Assembly (NCBI GenBank): GCA_041663165.1
Contig: JBAZRF010000001.1
Location: forward strand, 736-64,735
Source of the DNA: Minisyncoccota bacterium
GTDB taxonomy: Bacteria; Patescibacteriota; Minisyncoccia; Phycocordibacterales; XYD1-FULL-46-19
Length of the DNA: 64,000 bases
Direction of reading: 5' to 3'
Notes under the pieces: generated by a model
What the model was told of the DNA's origin: nothing
Database searches by the model: none
The model's input: only the letters and a program-made list of their open reading frames with translations
In this document: piece after piece, positions 2,561 to 51,782 of the stretch
Numbering within the stretch: position 1 is the first letter of the stretch
Layout of the letters: each line of letters begins with the position of its first letter
Program-made: the position numbers and the translations under genes

Positions 2561-3487
2561 TTATTTTTTAAAGCCGTTCAAAAAAGCTACCCAGGTCATT
2601 TCTTTGCGCCCTTCAGGGGTAACTAAATCATAAACAAGCTCATTCTCTTCAAGGTGGGCCTGCCTTATAATCACTCGAATTTTGCCGGTTGGACCGGGGT
2701 ACTCGAGGTAAGTACCGGGCCAAGGATTAAGCGCCAAGATTTTTCGGTAATTAATAAGAGTGGAGGAGCTTGGATCAAGGAAGCCGTCTGGCTTTACAAA
2801 CTTTTTGGTATAGGTGGCTTGATCGTGGCCCTGTTCTTGCAGTTCAATTTTACCTGCCTGCGCAGGCAGGTCAGACAAATAATCGGGCAAAAATTTTACC
2901 AACAATTCTGCGCCTAGCTCGGCCGTTTTGTCGCGCAATTGTTCAAAATTGTATAAGGGGACACCTTGTTCTGAACTCAAGTCGAAGGGTTCTTGCGCCA
3001 AAACCGGGCCATGATCCATCTCGGTATCCAATTTGATAATGGTTACCCCCGTCTCAGAATCGCCGTTTAGAATCGCTGTCTCGAGTGGCGACGGTCCGCG
3101 ATATTTAGGTAATAGCGATGGATGAATATTAAGTGTGCCATGAGTTGGTAAATCCAAAATTTCCTGTGGAATAATTTTGCCATAACTAGCGACGAGCGAA
3201 AAATCCAATTTTTCGAAGTCTTTTTTTGAAAGCTGGTCAGAAGTCGTACTTTGTGGAACTAAGTCCGACTTCGGGTCAGCGAGAAAGTTCTTCAAACTTG
3301 CCGGCTGAATTATCTTCACCCCATTTTCCTCTCCCCAAACCTTCACCAGCGGGGGAGTCATAATCATTTTTCGTCCCTTTGGTTTATCAGGCACCGTAAC
3401 AATCAAGGAGGGGACAAGCCCTCTGCCTTTTAATGTTTCCAAAACCTTTACACTAAACTCATCAGTGCCGAAAAAAGCAAAATTCAT
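2561..3487 (-). CDS. fmt: Methionyl-tRNA formyltransferase
   Basis: Fmt motifs (FFGTDEFS, SLLPKYRGPSPL). The start is moved to the internal Met MNFAFFG at 3487. A TATAAT and a GGAG-like RBS lie immediately upstream. The gene is adjacent to def. Confidence 0.88.
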   Translation of the reverse strand: MNFAFFGTDEFSVKVLETLKGRGLVPSLIVTVPDKPKGRKMIMTPPLVKVWGEENGVKIIQPASLKNFLADPKSDLVPQSTTSDQLSKKDFEKLDFSLVASYGKIIPQEILDLPTHGTLNIHPSLLPKYRGPSPLETAILNGDSETGVTIIKLDTEMDHGPVLAQEPFDLSSEQGVPLYNFEQLRDKTAELGAELLVKFLPDYLSDLPAQAGKIELQEQGHDQATYTKKFVKPDGFLDPSSSTLINYRKILALNPWPGTYLEYPGPTGKIRVIIRQAHLEENELVYDLVTPEGRKEMTWVAFLNGFKK

Positions 3488-3580
3488 GCTCCAATTATAG
3501 CAAAAATGATGATTCTGGTCACTTGACAAATTACTGATATAAGAGTATAATCAAGAGCAGGATTGGAAAGGAGATCTAGC

Positions 3581-3697
3581 ATGAACAAAATTGGCGCCTT
3601 CCTAACTGGCCTTGTGGCTGGCTACGGTAAGCAGGTGTCTCGCGCTTGGCAAGATGTTATTGCCGCGGCGATTGCCGTGGCGCGAGCTATCCACTAG
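3581..3697 (+). CDS. Small hypothetical protein (38 aa, hydrophobic/Ala-rich)
   Basis: ATG preceded by the strong RBS GGAAAGGAG in a fmt-def intergenic gap. It falls below the ORF-track size cutoff. Confidence 0.3.
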   Translation: MNKIGAFLTGLVAGYGKQVSRAWQDVIAAAIAVARAIH

Positions 3698-3757
3698 ACC
3701 GACTCCTCGTTTTTACAGGGATATCCCCTGGGGTCCGAGTTTGGGATTCCGGGGGGT

Positions 3758-4276
3758 TTATTTTTTAACTTCCGGTTTATATTCTTTTAACTCTTTTGTT
3801 TTTTCGATAAACAGAACGCCATTTAAGTGGTCGGTCTCGTGCTGAAAGATTTGGGCCAAGAGGCCGGTGCCAGAGCGAGTAAATTTTTTGCCATCAATAT
3901 CATAAGCAGTGACGGTGGCTTTGACTGAACGCCTCACTTCGCCATAAAGCCAGCGCACCGATAAGCAACCCTCCTCCATGGTCATTTTTTCTTTAGATAA
4001 TTTAGTTAATTCAGGATTAATAAAAACCAAATCCGGTTTTATTTTCTTTGCTTCAAAATCTTCCTCGTTTGTAAAAATTCGGCCCGAGACAACGAAAATT
4101 CGTAACGGCAGGCCGATTTGCGGCGCCGCTAGTGCCACCCCGTCGTCTTCTTTAGCCAGCGCTTCGCTCATATCGGTGATAATTTTTTTCAGTTTGGGCG
4201 TACCAAAAAGCTCCTTACCCACCTCCTCAGCGGGCTGATGAAGCACCTCATTTTCTTTTTGCACAATCTTGACCAT
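3758..4276 (-). CDS. def: Peptide deformylase
   Basis: Motifs EGCLS and QHETDHLNG. Classic def-fmt arrangement. Confidence 0.92.
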   Translation of the reverse strand: MVKIVQKENEVLHQPAEEVGKELFGTPKLKKIITDMSEALAKEDDGVALAAPQIGLPLRIFVVSGRIFTNEEDFEAKKIKPDLVFINPELTKLSKEKMTMEEGCLSVRWLYGEVRRSVKATVTAYDIDGKKFTRSGTGLLAQIFQHETDHLNGVLFIEKTKELKEYKPEVKK

Positions 4277-4831
4277 AGCTAATAACTATAATTTACAACA
4301 AAAAACTCAATAAGTCGAACCCAGTTCTGGACAAATGTTCTTTTGAGCCCATAATGGTAATAGAAAGAGTGCAGTTCAAACAGGATGAGGAGGCGCGCCA
4401 TGAAACTGTGCGTTATTGCCAGAGCATTACACCCTAATAAGGGTCGGAACCCCAGATCGGCCGTAGCCAACATAACCGCGGTCGAACTGGTTGCCGACAC
4501 CACACCCGTTTTTGGCCTACCGATGACTACTACGGTTGTCATCTACAACGGGGTGACATATCCACTGAAGGGGATTAGAGCCGATGGACTTAGTCCGGAG
4601 CAGGGGATCGTTTCTCTGTTGATCGGTTTGGAAAACGATTCCGAGGGTGTGGGGGAAAGGTGTATGGAATTGTTTACCGACCAGCCCTGGGGCAACGGCA
4701 CACCCTGTGCGGCTATCCGAGCCCTTGTTAAGACGCTGGTGGAAAAGAAGATGCGGCCACGGCGGTGGTGATTGAGTTGCCCGTCTCGCAACAACGAACC
4801 CGAATCGTTTGCGCGAGGCGGGTTCTGTTGC
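4277..4831. other. GC-rich (~57%) non-coding-looking block between priA and def; possible structured RNA or degraded foreign insert
   Basis: There is a sharp GC shift relative to the flanks. Only overlapping unconserved ORFs occur on both strands, with many GC-rich helices. I could not match it to RNase P, tmRNA, SRP RNA or group II domain V consensus by eye. Confidence 0.3.
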
Positions 4832-27668: not shown

Positions 27669-28553
27669 CTATGGCTTGTAATTCTTGCAGGTCATCTCGG
27701 CCCGCCATACGTACCATTCGGCTTTCGTATGGTCGTCGTCCCTCTTGGCCGCTTCCGTTGAGGGAGTCCCGAAGCTGTAGGTGCTTGGGATGACCATCTT
27801 TTCCCCGCCCCAGTCTAGTTTTAGGCCGGTCAACTGCATGATCTTGGCCGGGTCGATGGTTGCCACGACCCTGGTCCCGTAGTTCGTGTAACTGTGGGGC
27901 TCTCCCTCGATCGGCTCTACGTGTGGCGCATACACCTTCAATCCCTCGGGGGGTATTGAGTAGATATACCGCTCTGTCGAGAATTCCCGCTTGCCACTGG
28001 GCACGCTTGCGTGGATCTCTTCGAGATCTCGGAGCAGTACATACTTTTCCCGACTGTCGTAGTCTGCCTTGTCCTCTGGGACGTTGTATTCCGAAGAGTC
28101 CTCGAGGACGAGCTTCCATCCGTCGGATTTCTTCTGGACTTCTCCCAGGATGGGTAGATCACGATTGTAGGGCAGGGGCCGCTCTTCCCGGATTTCTCCT
28201 TTCGTGTCAATCTTGCGGGAATATACGGGTAAGCTCTTCAGGCCACTCTTCATCCGGTAGAATGTTCCGCTGACGCGTACCATCGTATCGGCGAAGAAGA
28301 AGTGGGCCCCATTCTTGTCCCACCGATCGAGGTACAACCCCTTCGGAATGTACATTCGATCTCCCTTGATGACTGGGTTGATTATGACGGGACGGTCCCA
28401 TCCGACACCGTCCAGGACATAATCGCCGTCGGCCTGCTCCACGGCACTCCAAGCATGGCATGTTACCTTGCAGTACACAGCATCCTCCGCCATGGCGATT
28501 CCACTGACAAACCCAATGACAAACAACATTGCGACCCACATCGTCTTACGCAT
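27669..28553 (-). CDS. Hypothetical secreted protein encoded in a GC-rich (~57%) insert
   Basis: Signal peptide MRKTMWVAMLFVIGFVSGIAMA and strong RBS GGAAGGAG. Codon usage is GC3-rich, unlike its neighbours. No recognisable domain. Confidence 0.6.
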   Translation of the reverse strand: MRKTMWVAMLFVIGFVSGIAMAEDAVYCKVTCHAWSAVEQADGDYVLDGVGWDRPVIINPVIKGDRMYIPKGLYLDRWDKNGAHFFFADTMVRVSGTFYRMKSGLKSLPVYSRKIDTKGEIREERPLPYNRDLPILGEVQKKSDGWKLVLEDSSEYNVPEDKADYDSREKYVLLRDLEEIHASVPSGKREFSTERYIYSIPPEGLKVYAPHVEPIEGEPHSYTNYGTRVVATIDPAKIMQLTGLKLDWGGEKMVIPSTYSFGTPSTEAAKRDDDHTKAEWYVWRAEMTCKNYKP

Positions 28554-28706: not shown

Positions 28707-28780
28707 GGCCCCATCGTCTAATGGTTAGGACATCACCCTCTCACGGTGGTAATCCGGGTTCGACTCCCGGTGGGGTCGCA
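28707..28780 (+). tRNA. tRNA-Glu (anticodon CUC)
   Basis: Cloverleaf: acceptor GGCCCCA/TGGGGTC, anticodon loop CTCTCAC, T-loop GGGTTCGACTCCC. Close match to bacterial tRNA-Glu. CCA is not encoded. Confidence 0.9.
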
Positions 28781-37353: not shown

Positions 37354-37812
37354 ATGGATCCGAGCGCCAAAATCCTTAATTTTTTGGATGATCACCACAT
37401 CAAGTACGAAGTTTTAGAGCATGAGCCGGTTTTTACCAGTGAACAAGCGGCTAAGATCAGAGGCACCGAATTATGCCAGGGCGCTAAGACTCTACTGCTT
37501 AAAACCGGGGGAGAGTTTGTTTTGGCCGTTTTGCCGGGGGAACGCCGACTTGATACAAAGAAACTGAAAAAGATTCTGGGCGTAAAAGATCTTCGTTTTG
37601 CCTTGCCAGAAGAAGTGGAAAAAATAATGGGCTGTCAAATCGGCGCCTGCTATCCGTTTGGCAATTTGATCGGCGTGCGAATGGTGGTTGATCAGGCAAT
37701 GGGTGATAATGAGATAATAACCTTTAACATCGGCCGGCACGATCGTTCAGTTAAAATGCGCTGGGACGATTATAAAAATATCACCAAAGCCGAAGTCGTT
37801 GAGATAACCTAA
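37354..37812 (+). CDS. YbaK/ProX-type aminoacyl-tRNA deacylase (trans-editing domain)
   Basis: YbaK fold segments (...GAKTLLLKTGGEFVLAVLPGERRLD...GCQIGACYPFG...). Confidence 0.75.
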   Translation: MDPSAKILNFLDDHHIKYEVLEHEPVFTSEQAAKIRGTELCQGAKTLLLKTGGEFVLAVLPGERRLDTKKLKKILGVKDLRFALPEEVEKIMGCQIGACYPFGNLIGVRMVVDQAMGDNEIITFNIGRHDRSVKMRWDDYKNITKAEVVEIT

Positions 37813-37819
37813 AAATATT

Positions 37820-38254
37820 ATGATGTCAGAAACATTAAAAAAATTCCGTTACCCAGAATCGCTAGTCAAAGAATATGAGAATTGGTTATTATTATGTCGG
37901 CCCAAACAAAAAACCTTAGGGTCTCTTGTCTTGTTGTGCAAAGATGAGATAACTAGTTTCTCGGCGATTTCTGATAAAAGTTTTACTGAATTATCTCAAA
38001 TAATTCGCGAAGTAGAAGGTAAACTAAGAAAAGAATTCAATTACGACAAAATAAATTATCAGATGTGGATGATGGCCGATCCGGAAGTTCATTTTCATAT
38101 TTTCCCCCGATATTCCGTGGATAAGGAATTATTCGGTTTCGTCTTTAAAGATACCGCTTGGCCCGGCACGCTTGGAGACAATGACCTTAATCAAATAGGT
38201 GAGGAGGTCTATTTAAAATTGGCCAGTAAACTAAAAGAATTATTTAACAAATAA
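37820..38254 (+). CDS. HIT-like (histidine triad superfamily) protein with variant HxH motif
   Basis: C-terminal EVHFHIFPRY resembles the HIT motif H-phi-H-phi-H with the third His replaced. The overall length is HIT-like. Confidence 0.5.
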   Translation: MMSETLKKFRYPESLVKEYENWLLLCRPKQKTLGSLVLLCKDEITSFSAISDKSFTELSQIIREVEGKLRKEFNYDKINYQMWMMADPEVHFHIFPRYSVDKELFGFVFKDTAWPGTLGDNDLNQIGEEVYLKLASKLKELFNK

Positions 38255-38317
38255 TAATGCAGATGAGAATGACCGGTCCTTATGGTGGGGGACCGGCCGT
38301 GGGAATTATTCGGAGGA

Positions 38318-38734
38318 CTAATTGTCTGAGGGCCGAAAGGTTCTGGCCCGAGGTCTTGCTTCGGGATCGACCCCTGGAGATGTTGACTGGGTAGTAATTA
38401 CTCCCATGGCGCTCGCTCCGCCCTCGTAGCCTTCGTGAAGCGCTTTCGAGATCGTCGGGGGCAGATCTTTGTCGTACAGGACGGATACCTGAATCTGTCG
38501 ACGAAGCATCTCTCTCTCACTATCCGATATCCAGCCACTATCGGCAAGCCTCTCAACTTCTCTTAAGGCTTCCGGTTTGCTGAGTACTAAGATGGGCTTT
38601 CTGCCTTGGACAAAGATTTGCCCCATGGCGTTTCCCTGCACCTCAACCTTTGACCCAAGTTCTCCGAGACCCGTTTTGATGGCCGCTATTAGCTCTTCTC
38701 GGGGAGGGGTTACCAAAAGACATGGCTTTTTCAC
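38318..38734 (-). CDS. Hypothetical protein, GC-rich foreign-looking gene (GTG start)
   Basis: GC-rich ORF with RBS GAGGAG and upstream promoter-like TTTACA-17-TATTAT. No recognisable domain. Confidence 0.5.
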   Translation of the reverse strand: MKKPCLLVTPPREELIAAIKTGLGELGSKVEVQGNAMGQIFVQGRKPILVLSKPEALREVERLADSGWISDSEREMLRRQIQVSVLYDKDLPPTISKALHEGYEGGASAMGVITTQSTSPGVDPEARPRARTFRPSDN

Positions 38735-38820
38735 TTCTCAATCTCTCCTCAGTTCGGGTGAACGTTACCTGCCTCCCATAATAACATCTAATTGATATAT
38801 TGTAAATGCTGATATCTATT

Positions 38821-38849
38821 CTTGACGGTTAACGCTTTTTTGTGTATGG
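38821..38849 (+). promoter_or_regulatory. sigma70-like promoter TTGACG-17-TATGGT on the + strand, divergent from the 38318-38734 gene
   Basis: Read directly: ttcTTGACGgttaacgcttttttgtgTATGGTg. Confidence 0.5.
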
Positions 38850-38852
38850 TGT

Positions 38853-38946
38853 TGTATATCCCCGCGAATGCACTCGCTGTGTGGTGAGTGTGGCATCACA
38901 ACCGGTTTAGGGGGTGAGCCTCTCGGCTTCCCCCTTACCTTATTTT
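38853..38946 (+). ncRNA. Candidate ~90-nt leader or small RNA ending in an intrinsic terminator (GGGGGTGAGCC...GGCTTCCCCC + U-tract)
   Basis: A promoter lies upstream. A GC-rich hairpin is followed by TTATTTTTT. The next CDS start is about 120 nt further downstream. Confidence 0.35.
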
Positions 38947-38947
38947 T
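38905..38947 (+). terminator. Rho-independent terminator-like hairpin + T-run
   Basis: AGGGGGTGAGCCTCTCGGCTTCCCCCTTACCTTATTTTTT. Confidence 0.5.
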
Positions 38948-39066
38948 TAAAGATGGCGTTTGTCAGAACTTACTAGCGATAGTGGGTTTTTTCTTTGCCA
39001 AGAGGTCATTTTTGTGTTAATGATAAACTGGAAAGTTGGCCTGAGCCTTACGGCAGAAAGGAGATT

Positions 39067-39426
39067 ATGACTATGCCAACGGCGAGAGTGCGATATGTCA
39101 ATACAGGAATTGGTCACGATACGTTGACCAAATTGAGAGACCATCTTCGCCGGTTGATCGCTCAAATTCTGACCGAGGTGGAAACGGCTCGGCCTGTAAG
39201 CGAAGACGGGGTTCGTTTGTTCTTCAAGAAAAACGAACCCTTCGATGTAATGCCCGATGATATCTTCATTGTGGTTGAAATCGGGATTACAGAAAGGCGC
39301 CTTCAGGCCAAAGACGCCATCGCTCGAAAGATACACCGAGGACTCGTGGAGGTGCTGGACGAAGGGCTGAAGTTCGAAGTCCAGGTCCGTCCTGTCGAGC
39401 GTGGTCGAGCCAAGAGCGGGGGGTGA
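39067..39426 (+). CDS. Hypothetical protein, GC-rich foreign-looking gene
   Basis: Strong RBS GAAAGGAGATT before ATGACTATG. The longer ORF-track start (38995) lacks an RBS. No recognisable domain. Confidence 0.5.
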   Translation: MTMPTARVRYVNTGIGHDTLTKLRDHLRRLIAQILTEVETARPVSEDGVRLFFKKNEPFDVMPDDIFIVVEIGITERRLQAKDAIARKIHRGLVEVLDEGLKFEVQVRPVERGRAKSGG

Positions 39427-39504
39427 CGCGAGGGGTAAGACCCTCCTCCGAAGATTGAATCGGTTCACTGGCAACAGTGGGCCTTTTCTTTTATAATTGA
39501 ACTG

Positions 39505-40566
39505 ATGAATACTGTTATTTTTATCGTCGTTGGGTTAGTGGTTGGTTTTGCTTTGGCCGTCATTGCCGTTAAGTTTTTTGGGTCAAAAAAAGAGGAGAAT
39601 GGGACGGATAATTCAGCCATGATGTTATTGCAAAATCAGATTGAGAATTTGACCAAAACGATTGATAGCCGTTTGCACGAAACTAATAAGCAATCGGCCG
39701 AGAGTGTGCGTGAGCAATTTAGCGAATTTGCCCGACTGTCGCGCGAAGTAACCGAGAAGTTGGTAAGGTTAGAAGAGACAAATAAACAGGTTATTAATTT
39801 TACCGACCAGCTCCAATCGCTCCAAGATATTTTAAAGAATCCCAAACAGCGAGGGATCTTGGGCGAATATTATCTTGAAACTTTATTAAAAAATGTCCTC
39901 CCGCCCGGCTCGTATCAAATGCAATATCCTTTTCCTGATGGCACGATTGTTGACGCCGTGGTGTTTGTGAAAGATAAAATTATTCCTATCGACTCCAAAT
40001 TTTCGCTCGAAAATTATAATCGAATTGTGGAAGAAAAAAGTCCGGCCGAAAAAGAAAAACTCGAAAAGATTTTTGTTAATGACTTAAAAAATCGTATTAG
40101 CGAAACGGCCAAATATGTTCAGCCTGATCGGGGAACGATGGAATTTGCCTTTATGTTCATCCCTCACGAGGCCATTTATTATGACCTAATTATCAATAAA
40201 ATTGGGGCGCTAAAAGACGAAAATACCGAAAACTTAATCCAGCGGGCGGCCTCAAAATACCACGTTATTATCGTTTCGCCGACCTCCTTCTTGGCCTATC
40301 TCCAGACCGTCCTACAGGGCCTAAAAGCCCTCCAGATTGAAGAATCAGCTAAGGAGATACGACAGAGGGTTGAAGAACTAGGCAAGCATATCGGGGCTTA
40401 TGAGAGCTATATGGCCAAGCTAGGGGGTGCCTTGGGGACCACCGTTAGCCACTATAATTTGGCCTACAAGGAGCTTAAAAAGGTGGATAAGGATGTACTA
40501 CGGGTAACTGGCGTCTCGGCCGGATTTGAGACCCAAACACTCGATAAACCCAATTTGGAGGACTAA
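39505..40566 (+). CDS. rmuC: DNA recombination protein RmuC
   Basis: N-terminal TM, coiled coils and conserved RmuC blocks (RGILGEYYLETLL; FMFIPHEAIYY; VIIVSPTSFLAYLQTV). Confidence 0.82.
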   Translation: MNTVIFIVVGLVVGFALAVIAVKFFGSKKEENGTDNSAMMLLQNQIENLTKTIDSRLHETNKQSAESVREQFSEFARLSREVTEKLVRLEETNKQVINFTDQLQSLQDILKNPKQRGILGEYYLETLLKNVLPPGSYQMQYPFPDGTIVDAVVFVKDKIIPIDSKFSLENYNRIVEEKSPAEKEKLEKIFVNDLKNRISETAKYVQPDRGTMEFAFMFIPHEAIYYDLIINKIGALKDENTENLIQRAASKYHVIIVSPTSFLAYLQTVLQGLKALQIEESAKEIRQRVEELGKHIGAYESYMAKLGGALGTTVSHYNLAYKELKKVDKDVLRVTGVSAGFETQTLDKPNLED

Positions 40567-40622
40567 AAACCAAAGCGTCCCGGCACTAAACGATGCGCGG
40601 GACGCGAGAACACATATGAGGG

Positions 40623-40907
40623 TTAAGGGTTGGCAATCGGGGCGAGGACCCTATCTTCAAGCTGCCGAATGATGGCGTCTGGGTCAGTTCCCATAAGCCC
40701 TTCCCGAAGAGAAGAGAGAAACTGGGCAGCTAGGCAACCCTTGGCGTGTTGGAGATATCCTCCCCAACGTCCAGGGATCTCGGCCTGCTGGTCAATCTCT
40801 ACTCCCATTACCACGGCAACTTTTCTAAGGTCGCCACTTGTCAGAGCGTTCTTAAGATCTCTTCTCCCCTCCGGACTTATTCGTCCGGCCACAATCTTTT
40901 CGTCCAT
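40623..40907 (-). CDS. Hypothetical protein, GC-rich foreign-looking gene
   Basis: Start set at MDEKIVAGR with RBS AAAGGAG. A consensus promoter lies upstream. No recognisable domain. Confidence 0.45.
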   Translation of the reverse strand: MDEKIVAGRISPEGRRDLKNALTSGDLRKVAVVMGVEIDQQAEIPGRWGGYLQHAKGCLAAQFLSSLREGLMGTDPDAIIRQLEDRVLAPIANP

Positions 40908-40929
40908 AAGGACTCCTTTCCCCGAGGAC

Positions 40930-40975
40930 CCCCTCGGAACACCTACTTGACATAATAGCATTTTAATTATAAAAA
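40930..40975 (-). promoter_or_regulatory. Near-consensus sigma70 promoter (TTGACT-17-TATTAT) for the 40623-40907 gene
   Basis: Reverse complement reads TTGACTttttataattaaaatgcTATTAT. Confidence 0.5.
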
Positions 40976-40995
40976 GTCAAGCATAAATTTGTTTT

Positions 40996-41020
40996 ATTAA
41001 AAAGCCGAAGCCGCGGGATT
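40996..41020 (-). terminator. Intrinsic terminator hairpin (AGCCGCGG-GATTGAA-CCGCGGCT) + U-tract on the minus strand, downstream of the 41054-41572 gene
   Basis: Perfect 8-bp stem. The minus-strand read continues CTTCGGCTTTTTAATAAAAC. Confidence 0.6.
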
Positions 41021-41053
41021 GAACCGCGGCTGGGGGTCAAACAAATTGTCGGA

Positions 41054-41572
41054 CTAGAAGAGGTATCCATCTGGTGGTTCTTCTCCGTCGGATCCGTCGT
41101 CGCGCCGGGGATCAGGTCGGGCGAGTTCTCCCTCGGGTGGCTGTCCCAATGGCCATTTCCCCGAACTTTCGCTGACCGAAGACCTGCTGTCTCCATCTTG
41201 CTCTCCGGACGATTCTTCTGACGGGAAACAGTCCGGTCGTCTCGGCGGAGCTTCGTCTACCGGAGCCCTTCCCGTGATCCGGTCAAAGACTCTGGCTTGG
41301 AGTTTGGCGATCAAGGATTTGAACCCTTTGTCGTCGAAGTCTCCCTGACGCACTGTTTCCTCGAGAATTGCTCCAATTGTGCCATCGATCTCACGATCTT
41401 TGGTTTGATCGAAACGATTTCCTCTCGTCTGGAGATAGGCAGAACCATATTGACTCAGGATCGTTGTTCTTAGTGCCTCGAGAGACATCGCTGGTCTCCC
41501 TGGATGGCCCTTGGCCATCCACACCTCCCAGGCCCTTCTTATTTCCCCAGTGTAAGGGTCGATCTTGGCCAT
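41054..41572 (-). CDS. Hypothetical protein with acidic, disordered C-terminal tail; GC-rich foreign-looking gene
   Basis: RBS AAGGAAGGA. The C-terminus is rich in D/E/S/P/G. No recognisable domain. Confidence 0.5.
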   Translation of the reverse strand: MAKIDPYTGEIRRAWEVWMAKGHPGRPAMSLEALRTTILSQYGSAYLQTRGNRFDQTKDREIDGTIGAILEETVRQGDFDDKGFKSLIAKLQARVFDRITGRAPVDEAPPRRPDCFPSEESSGEQDGDSRSSVSESSGKWPLGQPPEGELARPDPRRDDGSDGEEPPDGYLF

Positions 41573-41697
41573 TTGGCACCATCCTTCCTTTTCGCTCTGG
41601 CGAGCGCTCTGCGTTCAGTTCCACCCTTAACTTTAAATGAAAAAGAAAAAACGAGCAATCTTGCCATTAAACGGCTTTTGTGTATAATATAGTGGTT

Positions 41698-42006
41698 ATG
41701 TTCGCCATTATCGAAACGGGAGGTAAGCAGTACAAAGTCGCCGCGGGCGACTCTTTAAAGGTAGAAAAATTGCCCAAGACAGACAAGGGCGAAGTTATTT
41801 TTGATAAAGTTTTACTCGTCGCTGATGGCGAAAAAGTTCAGGTTGGCGATCCTTATCTTAAAGGGGCAACCGTTACCGCTAAGTTTGAAGAAGATGGCCG
41901 AGCTAAAAAAATTGTGGTTATCAAGTACAAAGCCAAATCGCGCTATCGCATTAAGACTGGCCATCGCCAGCCTTTTACCAAAGTCAAAATCGAAAAAATC
42001 GCCTAA
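41698..42006 (+). CDS. rplU: 50S ribosomal protein L21
   Basis: [14 protein letters not shown]... is the canonical L21 N-terminus. The start is moved to the ATG at 41698. Confidence 0.9.
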
Positions 42007-44311: not shown

Positions 44312-46057
44312 TTAAGCCGCTCCTTTGCGATCTAACTCCTTTAAGCTGTCCCAGTGTTCTTTTCCGCGGTGTCGGAGTTCTTCTCCTGGTTTCAAGAGGA
44401 CATCGAGACTAACGTTCTGGGCATCGCTGCCTCGGTAACAACCGAGAGTCTCCGCCGCTAGCATGTGGGTCACAAGGACGAAATGGACCCCACGCTCGTA
44501 CAGGGCCAACGCGGTCCTGTTGGACGAAGTAATCGCTACGAAATTCGCGGTGGGGTTATCCCTGCTCAGGTGGGCAGCGAGAACCCCGTTGTCTTTGATG
44601 TCGGGCGCGGTTGAGATCATCGTCTCGACTTCGGAGAAATCGATACCCGCTCGAGACTCTTCACTGCAAGCGTCTCCGAATCGGCAGGGGACACGATCTT
44701 TCAACAATCTTGCGAAAATGTCTGGATCATGGTCAATCACGAGGTAATCAGTCTCTCTTCCTTTGAGCCCAAGCCCGATTGACTTACCGAGCCTGTCATA
44801 TCCCACTAGCACTATTTTGGGGTGCATGGTCTCGTCTGGCGCCAGTGGTTCCTGCTTCCATACTGTCAACTTGTCCAACCACCAAAGCTGTGAACGTAGC
44901 TTTTGGTAAAGGTCCAAATTGTACTTGATCAAGTATGACGATATCGTCATACTGACCACCGTCACCACAATGAAGGGTGGTAGGATCGTTGGATCCAGGT
45001 GCTTCAAGGCCACACCCTGGGCCACGAGCACGAGGCTAAACTCCGACAACTGGCCGAGGGCCAAACCGGAGTTAAAGGCCGAGGACCTTTCGTACCCGAA
45101 CAGGCCGACGATGATCATTACTAGGAGCGGCTTGATGACGATGACCGCAACAGACATCAGCACGATTAGGGTCAAATGGTTATAGATAATCAGGCCAAAT
45201 GATCCCAGCGAAGCACCACTGGTTGTCGGAGCGAGTTGGAGCCCTAGCGCCGCGAAGAACAAGACGGTGAAGAACGACTTCAACGCCTTGAAGTCCCCGA
45301 TGATCTCATGCTGGTACGCTAACGACGCCATCGCTAGGCCGGCTAGGAACGAGCCGATGCCCATCGACAGTTTCATCTTGGCCGCGTAAAAGGCGCAGAC
45401 GAACAGCACTCCCATAGCTACGACAAAAAGGGTTTCCCTTTCCCTCGCTACGCACCAGAACAGCCGTGGAAAAACGAACTTTCCGCAAACCATTACGATG
45501 AGTAAAATCAACCCGGCGGTAATCGTTCCTGTGCTTATCAACTCCGTCACTGAAAAATCATTGGCGGTAGTTAATATTGACAGGGCGAAAATCGCCATCA
45601 CGTCCTGCATTACTAGAATGCCTATGGAGATGCGTCCGTACAGGGTGTTAAGGTCGTATTTCTCGCCTAAGACCTTGACGACCAGCATCGTGGAGGAAAA
45701 GGATGTTGCGAAGCCGATGTAAGCACCCGCAATGCTAGTCATTCCCAGTAGCTTGGCCAGACCAAAACCTAAACCGAAGCTGGCGATGACTTGAAGACAT
45801 CCTCCGCCAATTGCGACAAGGCCGAGTTTCTTCAGGCGTGACAAGTCCATCTCGATTCCGATTACGAACAACATGATCGTAGCGGCGATTCCAGACATGT
45901 CACCGATCGACTCTACCTGGTTTATCCAGCCAAGGCAGAGAGGTCCTACTACTACTCCCGCCAAGACGTAGGCGGGGATCATGGGTTGCCGGGCTATTTT
46001 GAAAACTAGCCCAAACAATGCCGCTAACACGAACAAAATTCCTATATCCTGTTGCAT
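44312..46057 (-). CDS. Monovalent cation:proton antiporter-2 (CPA2/Kef-type) with C-terminal RCK/TrkA-N domain; GC-rich
   Basis: About 12 TM Na_H exchanger core. The segment KIVLVGYDRLGKSIGLGL is a Rossmann-type RCK fold. GC content is well above the flanks. Confidence 0.8.
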   Translation of the reverse strand: MQQDIGILFVLAALFGLVFKIARQPMIPAYVLAGVVVGPLCLGWINQVESIGDMSGIAATIMLFVIGIEMDLSRLKKLGLVAIGGGCLQVIASFGLGFGLAKLLGMTSIAGAYIGFATSFSSTMLVVKVLGEKYDLNTLYGRISIGILVMQDVMAIFALSILTTANDFSVTELISTGTITAGLILLIVMVCGKFVFPRLFWCVARERETLFVVAMGVLFVCAFYAAKMKLSMGIGSFLAGLAMASLAYQHEIIGDFKALKSFFTVLFFAALGLQLAPTTSGASLGSFGLIIYNHLTLIVLMSVAVIVIKPLLVMIIVGLFGYERSSAFNSGLALGQLSEFSLVLVAQGVALKHLDPTILPPFIVVTVVSMTISSYLIKYNLDLYQKLRSQLWWLDKLTVWKQEPLAPDETMHPKIVLVGYDRLGKSIGLGLKGRETDYLVIDHDPDIFARLLKDRVPCRFGDACSEESRAGIDFSEVETMISTAPDIKDNGVLAAHLSRDNPTANFVAITSSNRTALALYERGVHFVLVTHMLAAETLGCYRGSDAQNVSLDVLLKPGEELRHRGKEHWDSLKELDRKGAA

Positions 46058-51152: not shown

Positions 51153-51665
51153 CTAGTCCCAAACCAGCTCGGAGTATTCGAGCATGATCTGGTCGAGGCG
51201 TTCGGCCGTGAACTTGCCGGCGTCAACCTCTTCCTGGGTGACAATACCACACTTGACCATGTCGTTGATGATGGCCAAGGTTACTGCTGGACAGTTCTTG
51301 CTACGAGCGGCGTTGGTCACTCGCGACCAGAGTGTCTTCCCGCGGAAGTTTAGGCGAGACCATTCCCACCAATCCGTGTCTCTGGGGTCGCCAGCTAGGT
51401 TGGAGGTCCAGACGAAGTGCCACTCCAGATACTCTGGGTTGAAGTAGAAAGTTCGTTCGCCTAGAACTAGTGGCCAGACAAGTAGTCCGCCGTCCCAGCA
51501 TGGGCCGGCTAACTGATCGCCCTCGGGCATTTCCCAGTACCAGGCGGGGACGTCCAACCCTCGGATCCAATAGCACCCCTCAAAGGGGTTTCCGTCGGCT
51601 TGAACGGTTTGACAAACTGCAACCGACAACAACACGAGAACAAAGAACGCATACGACGACTTCAT
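51153..51665 (-). CDS. Hypothetical secreted Trp-rich protein, GC-rich foreign-looking gene
   Basis: Signal peptide MKSSYAFFVLVLLSVAVCQTVQA. 13 Trp. No recognisable domain. Confidence 0.5.
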   Translation of the reverse strand: MKSSYAFFVLVLLSVAVCQTVQADGNPFEGCYWIRGLDVPAWYWEMPEGDQLAGPCWDGGLLVWPLVLGERTFYFNPEYLEWHFVWTSNLAGDPRDTDWWEWSRLNFRGKTLWSRVTNAARSKNCPAVTLAIINDMVKCGIVTQEEVDAGKFTAERLDQIMLEYSELVWD

Positions 51666-51782
51666 GGGCAAATCCTTTCGCGTGGCGCCCTTTATTGGGC
51701 TGTGGGCGCCGGTAGTTCATCCGTGAAAAATTATAGGACAAAAATAAGATAAAAGCAAGTAATAGAATTATTATGAAAAAGA

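Follow-up and report, generated by a model that had tools for sequence, protein, structure and literature searches.

Orphan genes, which belong to no recognised family, are ubiquitous, and rare 'cloud' orphans have been reported to be richer in guanine and cytosine (GC) than other orphans (PMC11293555); in Patescibacteria, hundreds of genomic islands and transferred genes have been reported (PMC12455944). The locus analysed here lies in a 64,000-nucleotide (nt) stretch of contig JBAZRF010000001.1 (hereafter the window) and consists of two small divergent genes upstream of rmuC: gene A on the minus strand and gene B on the plus strand, entered at NCBI as MFA6253674.1 and MFA6253675.1, both hypothetical proteins of a Candidatus (Ca.) Paceibacterota metagenome-assembled genome (MAG). 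In keeping with that entry, scanning species-representative genomes with the neighbouring RmuC protein led to Ca. Paceibacterota, Vogelbacteria and Nomurabacteria MAGs, the best at 85-89% protein identity; the host is a Vogelbacteria-like, metagenome-derived member of Ca. Paceibacterota. An initial annotation of the window had proposed a horizontally acquired two-gene module, possibly a toxin/antitoxin or effector/immunity pair. On balance we favour a different reading, in which A and B are two independent, lineage-restricted accessory genes in a hypervariable slot upstream of rmuC and do not form a functional pair. In kind the locus is familiar, lineage-restricted orphan genes in a variable slot, of which the A family and B are new members. 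Like other ORFan genes in variable bacterial slots, A and B are short, family-less, patchy among close relatives and atypical in composition; unlike described ORFan and genomic-island cases, they have no integrase, tRNA or repeat boundary, and the orphans differ from the core genes in having a Shine-Dalgarno (SD) site, which most of the core lacks.

The case for a variable slot comes from comparison of rmuC neighbourhoods. Downstream, the order rmuC-rplU-recR-dnaB is conserved in relatives; upstream of rmuC, relatives share nothing with the window, and because they differ there, we regard the A/B site as a hypervariable slot. Immediately 5' of rmuC, one related locus (L004) has a 32-bp gap after a glycosyltransferase gene, another (L006) about 290 bp, and a third (L005) 1.5-2.5 kb of other open reading frames (ORFs). 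Side by side with L006:5712-5999, the intact family 2 glycosyltransferase (GT2) gene of L004:5276-6000 abuts rmuC, and in L005:1131-2677 three orphan ORFs, an A-like gene among them, come after a truncated GT2 gene. Neither A nor B is found at the orthologous position in L003, L004, L006 and other relatives; A is present beside rmuC in two relatives, L005 and the contig that encodes a protein we call P0003. Two short contigs of the same strain from other samples, L001 and L002, are 99.96% and 100% identical to the window overall and do not differ from it within the island.

Gene A proved to have a family, if a very small one. Whereas a word-indexed search of 5.8 billion proteins with A returned the same strain only, an exhaustive phmmer search yielded a single genuine relative, P0003 (152 aa, E 2e-21), which is 49% identical over residues 1-120; three further matches (P0004-P0006) were long tandem-repeat proteins whose scores were sums over 5-13 weak repeats, and were discarded as spurious. 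A profile of A and P0003, run against all ORFs of 80 related loci, then recovered a third member, L005:2215-2544 (minus strand, 109 aa; hmmsearch E 2.5e-4, 32% identity, alignment z 8.3), and a metagenome scan with the A profile returned the same strain only. The three members have a common core of about 105 aa with invariant stretches including VLSK-EA and H..Y; beyond the core, the C-terminal tail varies or is missing, and in A it is basic and probably disordered, next to a near-neutral core. By inspection, neither A nor B has a signal peptide or membrane segment, and A is a member of a very small family of soluble proteins. Searches of Pfam, NCBIfam, PADLOC and PHROGs (E up to 1) gave no match to A save a sub-threshold CtsR_C (E 0.15-0.24), and no PDB match was found. 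The PDB sequence matches obtained from single sequences and from A1/A2 profiles amounted to noise: one (E 0.07) covered just 28 aa of the P22 portal, and the others were designed TIM barrels whose scores were summed over repeats.

All three A-family members stand head-to-head with rmuC, and this is the one context that the family conserves. On the P0003 contig, read in the orientation of the window, the minus-strand gene for P0003 comes after a cut 184-aa gene and lies 124 bp from rmuC on the plus strand; beyond rmuC follow a minus-strand ORF of 119 aa, rplU, recR and dnaB. In L005 the A-like gene is likewise divergent from rmuC, across a gap of 133 bp. Because these A-rmuC gaps are only 124 and 133 bp, there is no room for B between the two genes in either relative. 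A thus recurs twice beside rmuC without B in between, which tells against a two-gene module; the co-occurrence of the two genes in other genomes, on which the earlier proposal had staked itself, was not seen.

For B, by contrast with A, no relative emerged. It has no match in Pfam, NCBIfam, PADLOC or PHROGs (E up to 1) or among PDB sequences, so that the earlier statement that neither protein falls in a recognisable family holds for both. The word-indexed search of 5.8 billion proteins returned the same strain only, no relative turned up in the 80 related loci by tblastn or phmmer, nor in IMG/VR or in phage and plasmid collections; by these sequence comparisons B is found only in this strain or species. 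An ORF of L005 that looked B-like by eye (orf113, 1767-2108) was rejected at an alignment z of 0.35. The protein is basic (isoelectric point 9.5), and AlphaFold2 (AF2), given the single sequence, predicted a beta-alpha-beta-beta-alpha-beta topology (pLDDT 63.8, pTM 0.58), a model of moderate confidence that suggests a generic ferredoxin-like fold. A Foldseek search of the model against PDB and BFVD returned nothing below E 1e-3, and because the matches spread over many unrelated superfamilies the model gives the fold class only. Among small ferredoxin-like proteins (dimeric alpha/beta-barrel, ribosomal protein S6, ACT, PII-like), B has the sequence signature of none. The tautomerase superfamily, with its beta-alpha-beta units and N-terminal catalytic proline, was also considered and set aside, as B showed no family-level similarity to it in sequence or structure.

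The two genes, re-read from the sequence at the positions first annotated, are separated by a 332-bp spacer (38735-39066), whose predicted signals are collected in the table. A consensus scan recovered both members of the back-to-back sigma70-like promoter pair reported earlier, and a further site closer to B. In all, the spacer has three promoter-like matches against about 0.4 expected at the regional shuffle rate, none of them significant singly; the scan as a whole, covering 4.2 kb, gave 10 where shuffles gave 5.1 +/- 2.4, and single matches are therefore weak evidence. From a predicted start at about 38857, the leader of B would be about 210 nt long, as first described; folding bore out its intrinsic terminator and added another, making two terminator-like hairpins rather than one between the plus-strand promoter-like site and B (38904-38939 and 38965-38996). 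The hairpin of terminator 1 has a folding free energy of -22.8 kcal/mol (z -3.9; 0/200 shuffles equally stable) and was overlooked by a consensus terminator scan, probably owing to a bulge in its stem; hairpin 2 has -15.8 kcal/mol (z -4.1). An RNA begun near 38857 and ended at terminator 1 would measure about 85-95 nt.

Table. Predicted features of the A/B locus and GC-rich ORFs of the window
Feature	Position	Strand	Description	Basis or remark
Gene A	38318-38734	-	138 aa, GTG start, TAG stop	ORF listing
Gene B	39067/39073-39426	+	119 aa from ATG 39067, 117 aa from ATG 39073	ORF listing
SD site of A	38745-38750	-	GAGGAG, 10 nt before GTG	Anti-SD duplex -8.6 kcal/mol
SD site of B	39057-39063	+	AAAGGAG	Anti-SD duplex -10.5 to -11.7 kcal/mol
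Promoter-like site of A	38806..38778	-	TTTACA-17-TATTAT, TG before -10, 10/12 matches	Consensus scan
Promoter-like site of leader/B	38822..38850	+	TTGACG-17-TATGGT, 9/12 matches	-35 lies 15 bp from -35 of A promoter
Proximal promoter-like site	38995-39024	+	TTGCCA-18-AATGAT, 9/12 matches	Weak
Leader hairpin	38870-38891	+	9-bp stem, GUGU loop	
Intrinsic terminator 1 (predicted)	38904-38949	+	Interrupted 14-bp GC-rich stem (38904-38939), then UUAUUUUUU	
Terminator-like hairpin 2	38965-38996	+	Hairpin 38965-38990, GCGA tetraloop, then U tract UUUUUUCUUU	
Intrinsic terminator of B (predicted)	39462-39493	+	Hairpin 39462-39483, 9-bp stem, then UUUUCUUUU	Overlaps -35 of rmuC promoter
rmuC promoter (predicted)	39468-39497	+	CTGGCA-18-TATAAT; -10 ends 7 nt 5' of ATG 39505	Right edge of variable slot
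GC-rich inverted repeat	38271-38297		9-bp stem on either strand, z -2.7 on minus strand, without clean U tract	Between HIT-like gene and A
Window ORFs of at least 52% GC	4385-4771; 27669-28553; A; B; 40623-40961; 41054-41572; 51153-51671; 44312-46057			

This arrangement makes attenuator control of B plausible. Like described attenuator and riboswitch leaders, this one, at about 210 nt, includes a strong intrinsic terminator and possibly a helix that competes with it; it differs in its two tandem terminators, its lack of an Rfam match and of a demonstrable aptamer-like core, and in an alternative fold that is a thermodynamic suggestion only. That helix would pair 38892-38899 with 38913-38920 and could act as an antiterminator; on thermodynamics only, the forced alternative fold comes to -29.7 kcal/mol against -35.7, about 6 weaker. 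Searching Rfam with the leader at gathering and E-value thresholds gave no credible match, and no related locus examined has a homologous leader. A 50-aa ORF (38868-39020, plus strand) opens about 11 nt into the predicted transcript and extends across both terminators; with a coding score near 0, it is probably not a gene. Because it runs through both terminators, ribosome-dependent read-through is conceivable.

That A and B were acquired together as a functional toxin/antitoxin or effector/immunity module has some appeal, as they are adjacent, small and both GC-atypical, they meet at a common divergent promoter region, and their lack of any known family leaves room for a new toxin/antitoxin type. 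We nevertheless judge it very improbable, given the two A homologs that stand without B. Type II toxin-antitoxin pairs are normally co-directional and tightly spaced; A and B resemble them as two small adjacent genes with their own promoter region, but are divergent across 332 bp, each with its own promoter-like site, have no toxin or antitoxin domain (nor any match in Pfam, NCBIfam or PADLOC), and one partner is absent where A recurs. The succession of promoter, structured RNA, intrinsic terminator and small protein gene recalls type III (ToxIN-like) systems, from which the locus departs in that its leader has no tandem repeats: none was found in 38200-39600 by Tandem Repeats Finder (minimum score 30) and none by a separate repeat search of the leader. 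B, moreover, has no ToxN/AbiQ-type match in Pfam or PADLOC, and its predicted fold is a generic ferredoxin-like one. Had the locus been a toxin/antitoxin or effector module, it would have represented a new system, but the evidence does not point that way. We are also disinclined to see A as functionally tied to rmuC, as a regulator or partner with a common divergent control region into which B was merely inserted. Three genomes preserve the head-to-head adjacency although they differ on the opposite flank of A (the HIT-like gene here, the GT2 fragment and orphans in L005, the 184-aa gene in the P0003 contig), yet with no more than three genomes, all closely related, the adjacency may simply reflect common inheritance; L003, L004 and L006, whose RmuC is equally similar, lack A; and no DNA-binding domain was found in A, CtsR_C remaining below threshold.

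Doubts of another sort attach to B itself, which could be a chance ORF in GC-rich, stop-poor DNA, leaving A as the only genuine gene. An open frame as long as 119 codons is nothing unusual at 53% GC (an estimated 0.6 or so expected in the island), a 175-aa antisense ORF overlaps B, B has no homolog, and gene callers disagree on its start, giving 97, 117, 119 or 143 aa (117 at JGI). Against this stands a strong SD site at the right distance: it lies 9 nt before ATG 39073 and 3 nt before ATG 39067, so that the former is the likelier start. In a dicodon model trained on 30 long window genes, B scored 0.252, the best of its six frames, and its antisense ORF -0.108; A, which its homologs confirm as a gene, scored 0.171, also the best of six. 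Left-out real genes scored 0.48 +/- 0.12 (minimum 0.158), and 33 of 34 shadow ORFs fell below A and B. The GC content of B at the first, second and third codon positions (GC1 62%, GC2 38%, GC3 57%) follows the coding pattern GC1 > GC3 > GC2, as does that of A. With the regular predicted fold (pTM 0.58) and the terminator after the stop codon, these signals make B very probably a real gene, and a chance origin correspondingly improbable. A more serious contender is that the plus-strand transcript of about 90 nt is a stand-alone small RNA gene with tandem terminators, and that B is a separate gene transcribed from the proximal site at 38995-39024, which could drive B independently of the leader. 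Two consecutive terminator-like hairpins after a well-folded RNA (z -3.2) and a promoter-like site between the second of them and B speak for it; the proximal promoter is weak, however, with AATGAT as its -10, and the RNA has neither an Rfam match nor a homologous sequence showing conservation, so that we consider it possible but doubtful. The most far-reaching interpretation takes the promoter, structured 90-nt RNA and tandem terminators as an undescribed cis-regulatory attenuator or small RNA controlling a foreign-type gene and, more broadly, the genome as an SD-poor, often leaderless one that keeps a distinct GC-rich, SD-led accessory class, with A an rmuC-associated factor; this we hold to be rather unlikely.

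How foreign the two genes look depends on composition and translation signals taken together. A has 53.2% GC and B 52.5%, compared with 44.7% for the window as a whole, a modest shift that the figures first reported (55-58% in a genome of about 42%) overstated. The 68 non-overlapping window ORFs average 45.5% GC (sd 3.9), which places A at +2.0 sd and B at +1.8 sd, among eight ORFs of at least 52%; both genes still score positive in the host-trained dicodon model. Only one of the eight, a Na+/H+ exchanger gene (44312-46057), has a Pfam domain. What sets the eight apart is their pairing with the anti-SD: taking the first start codon, the duplex reaches -7 kcal/mol or better in 5/8 against 2/58 of the other ORFs (Fisher p 1.2e-4); with any start within 40 codons allowed, an SD site is present in 8/8 against 8/58. 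By estimate, higher G content raises chance GGAG matches only about 1.4-fold. Core genes are mostly SD-less, with A/T-rich upstream regions, and the ribosome-binding sites that had been claimed for A and B are both there, as GAGGAG and AAAGGAG. This split between SD-led accessory and SD-less core genes is the most useful by-product of the analysis: GC content plus the translation-initiation signal can separate accessory from core genes, and may offer a cheap marker of foreign DNA in such genomes.

The atypical look of A and B, to which their classic units of promoter plus intrinsic terminator also contribute, fits accessory or horizontally acquired DNA, and a horizontal origin, older for A and recent for B, seems to us the probable history. 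Of the original proposal of a horizontally acquired two-gene module, the first half holds up in part, in that GC content, SD sites, absence from most close relatives and the hypervariable slot all fit foreign-looking accessory DNA; the second half is not borne out, given the recurrence of A without B. As to a source, phages, plasmids and IMG/VR yielded no donor or mobile-element relative. Positions 38308-38321 have a 14-nt match at the 3' end of rmuC; considered as a possible target duplication, it was at chance level (about 2 expected in 5.5 kb).

Several observations weigh against independent, horizontally acquired accessory genes, or loosen their support. No integrase or transposase gene lies in 37354-41680, there is no tRNA target at the locus (the only tRNA of the window is at 28707), and no flanking direct repeats above chance were found around A and B. 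The A-like gene of L005 is itself GC-rich (55.5%, GC3 69%, in a locus of 42.8%) and has an SD site, so high GC may be a trait of the family and not a sign of recent transfer. The protein-database search with B was word-indexed only and not exhaustive; the 119-aa ORF on the minus strand of the P0003 contig, in the rmuC/rplU gap and without a Pfam match, was left with its sequence unread and not compared with B, and the word-indexed search with B did not retrieve it. The promoter calls are consensus matches only, and the AF2 model of A, from a two-sequence alignment, was unusable (pLDDT 44.5) and left out of the fold search.

On the reading we favour, two independent accessory genes in one hypervariable slot, B and its structured leader would either have entered the interval between A and rmuC or have disappeared from the other two genomes that have A. 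The two genes would be independent transcription units fired from back-to-back promoters. The minus-strand promoter would give an A mRNA with an SD-bearing 5' untranslated region of about 37 nt; transcripts from the plus-strand promoter would start at about 38857 and mostly end at the tandem terminators (38904-38949 and 38965-38996), yielding an RNA of about 85-140 nt. B would then be made only through read-through, or from the weak proximal promoter at 38995-39024, and its own terminator would insulate the overlapping promoter of rmuC. The order of events, insertion of B versus its loss, and the read-through step are what we infer from this arrangement. The three-member A family and the orphan B are candidates for structural or functional genomics.

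To the left of A lie a gene for a YbaK-type editing domain (37354-37812) and a HIT-like gene (37820-38254) convergent with A. The latter has the lowest GC content in the window (35.2%), and its Pfam HIT match is barely above threshold (23.2 against 21.5 bits); the inverted repeat between it and A may be a weak bidirectional terminator. To the right follow rmuC (39505-40566), two GC-rich minus-strand orphans (40623-40961 and 41054-41572), and the genes for ribosomal protein L21, RecR and DnaB. Because its -10 box ends 7 nt before ATG 39505, the rmuC mRNA is probably leaderless. TATAAT-type -10 boxes 6-9 nt before the ATG, without an SD site, are seen at both rmuC (39492-39507) and rplU (41683-41700) and suggest leaderless mRNAs; the -10-to-ATG spacing 5' of rmuC, of 6-7 nt, recurs in L005, L009, L010, L011, L013 and L017.

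The two orphans between rmuC and rplU, o112 (112 aa) and o172 (172 aa), make up a second GC-rich islet (40567-41679, 53-55% GC) and each has its own promoter-like or terminator-like site; neither has a match in Pfam, NCBIfam, PADLOC, PHROGs or IMG/VR. The rmuC-rplU gap is about 45-75 bp in L003, L006, L007 and L012; over the relatives as a whole it varies between 45 and 1670 bp. The region illustrates cleanly how streamlined Paceibacterota genomes gather accessory genes in fixed variable slots that flank rmuC on either side. In L003 a variable gap holds another GC-rich orphan (3288-3947, minus strand; 219 aa; 54.5% against 44.6%), which is not related to either A or B.

No paralogs were seen within the set made up of A, B, o112, o172 and the remaining GC-rich ORFs of the window. 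The Na+/H+ exchanger, which includes a TrkA-N domain and is encoded on the minus strand, has 52% GC, a GC3 of 64% and an SD-like site, and may be acquired. The ORFs at 27669-28553 and 51153-51671, both on the minus strand, have a GC3 near 70%, no Pfam domain, signal-peptide-like N termini and many tryptophan and tyrosine residues, and show weak mutual similarity; the former adjoins tRNA-Glu (28707-28779) and has a 32%-identical relative at L006:3202-3570.

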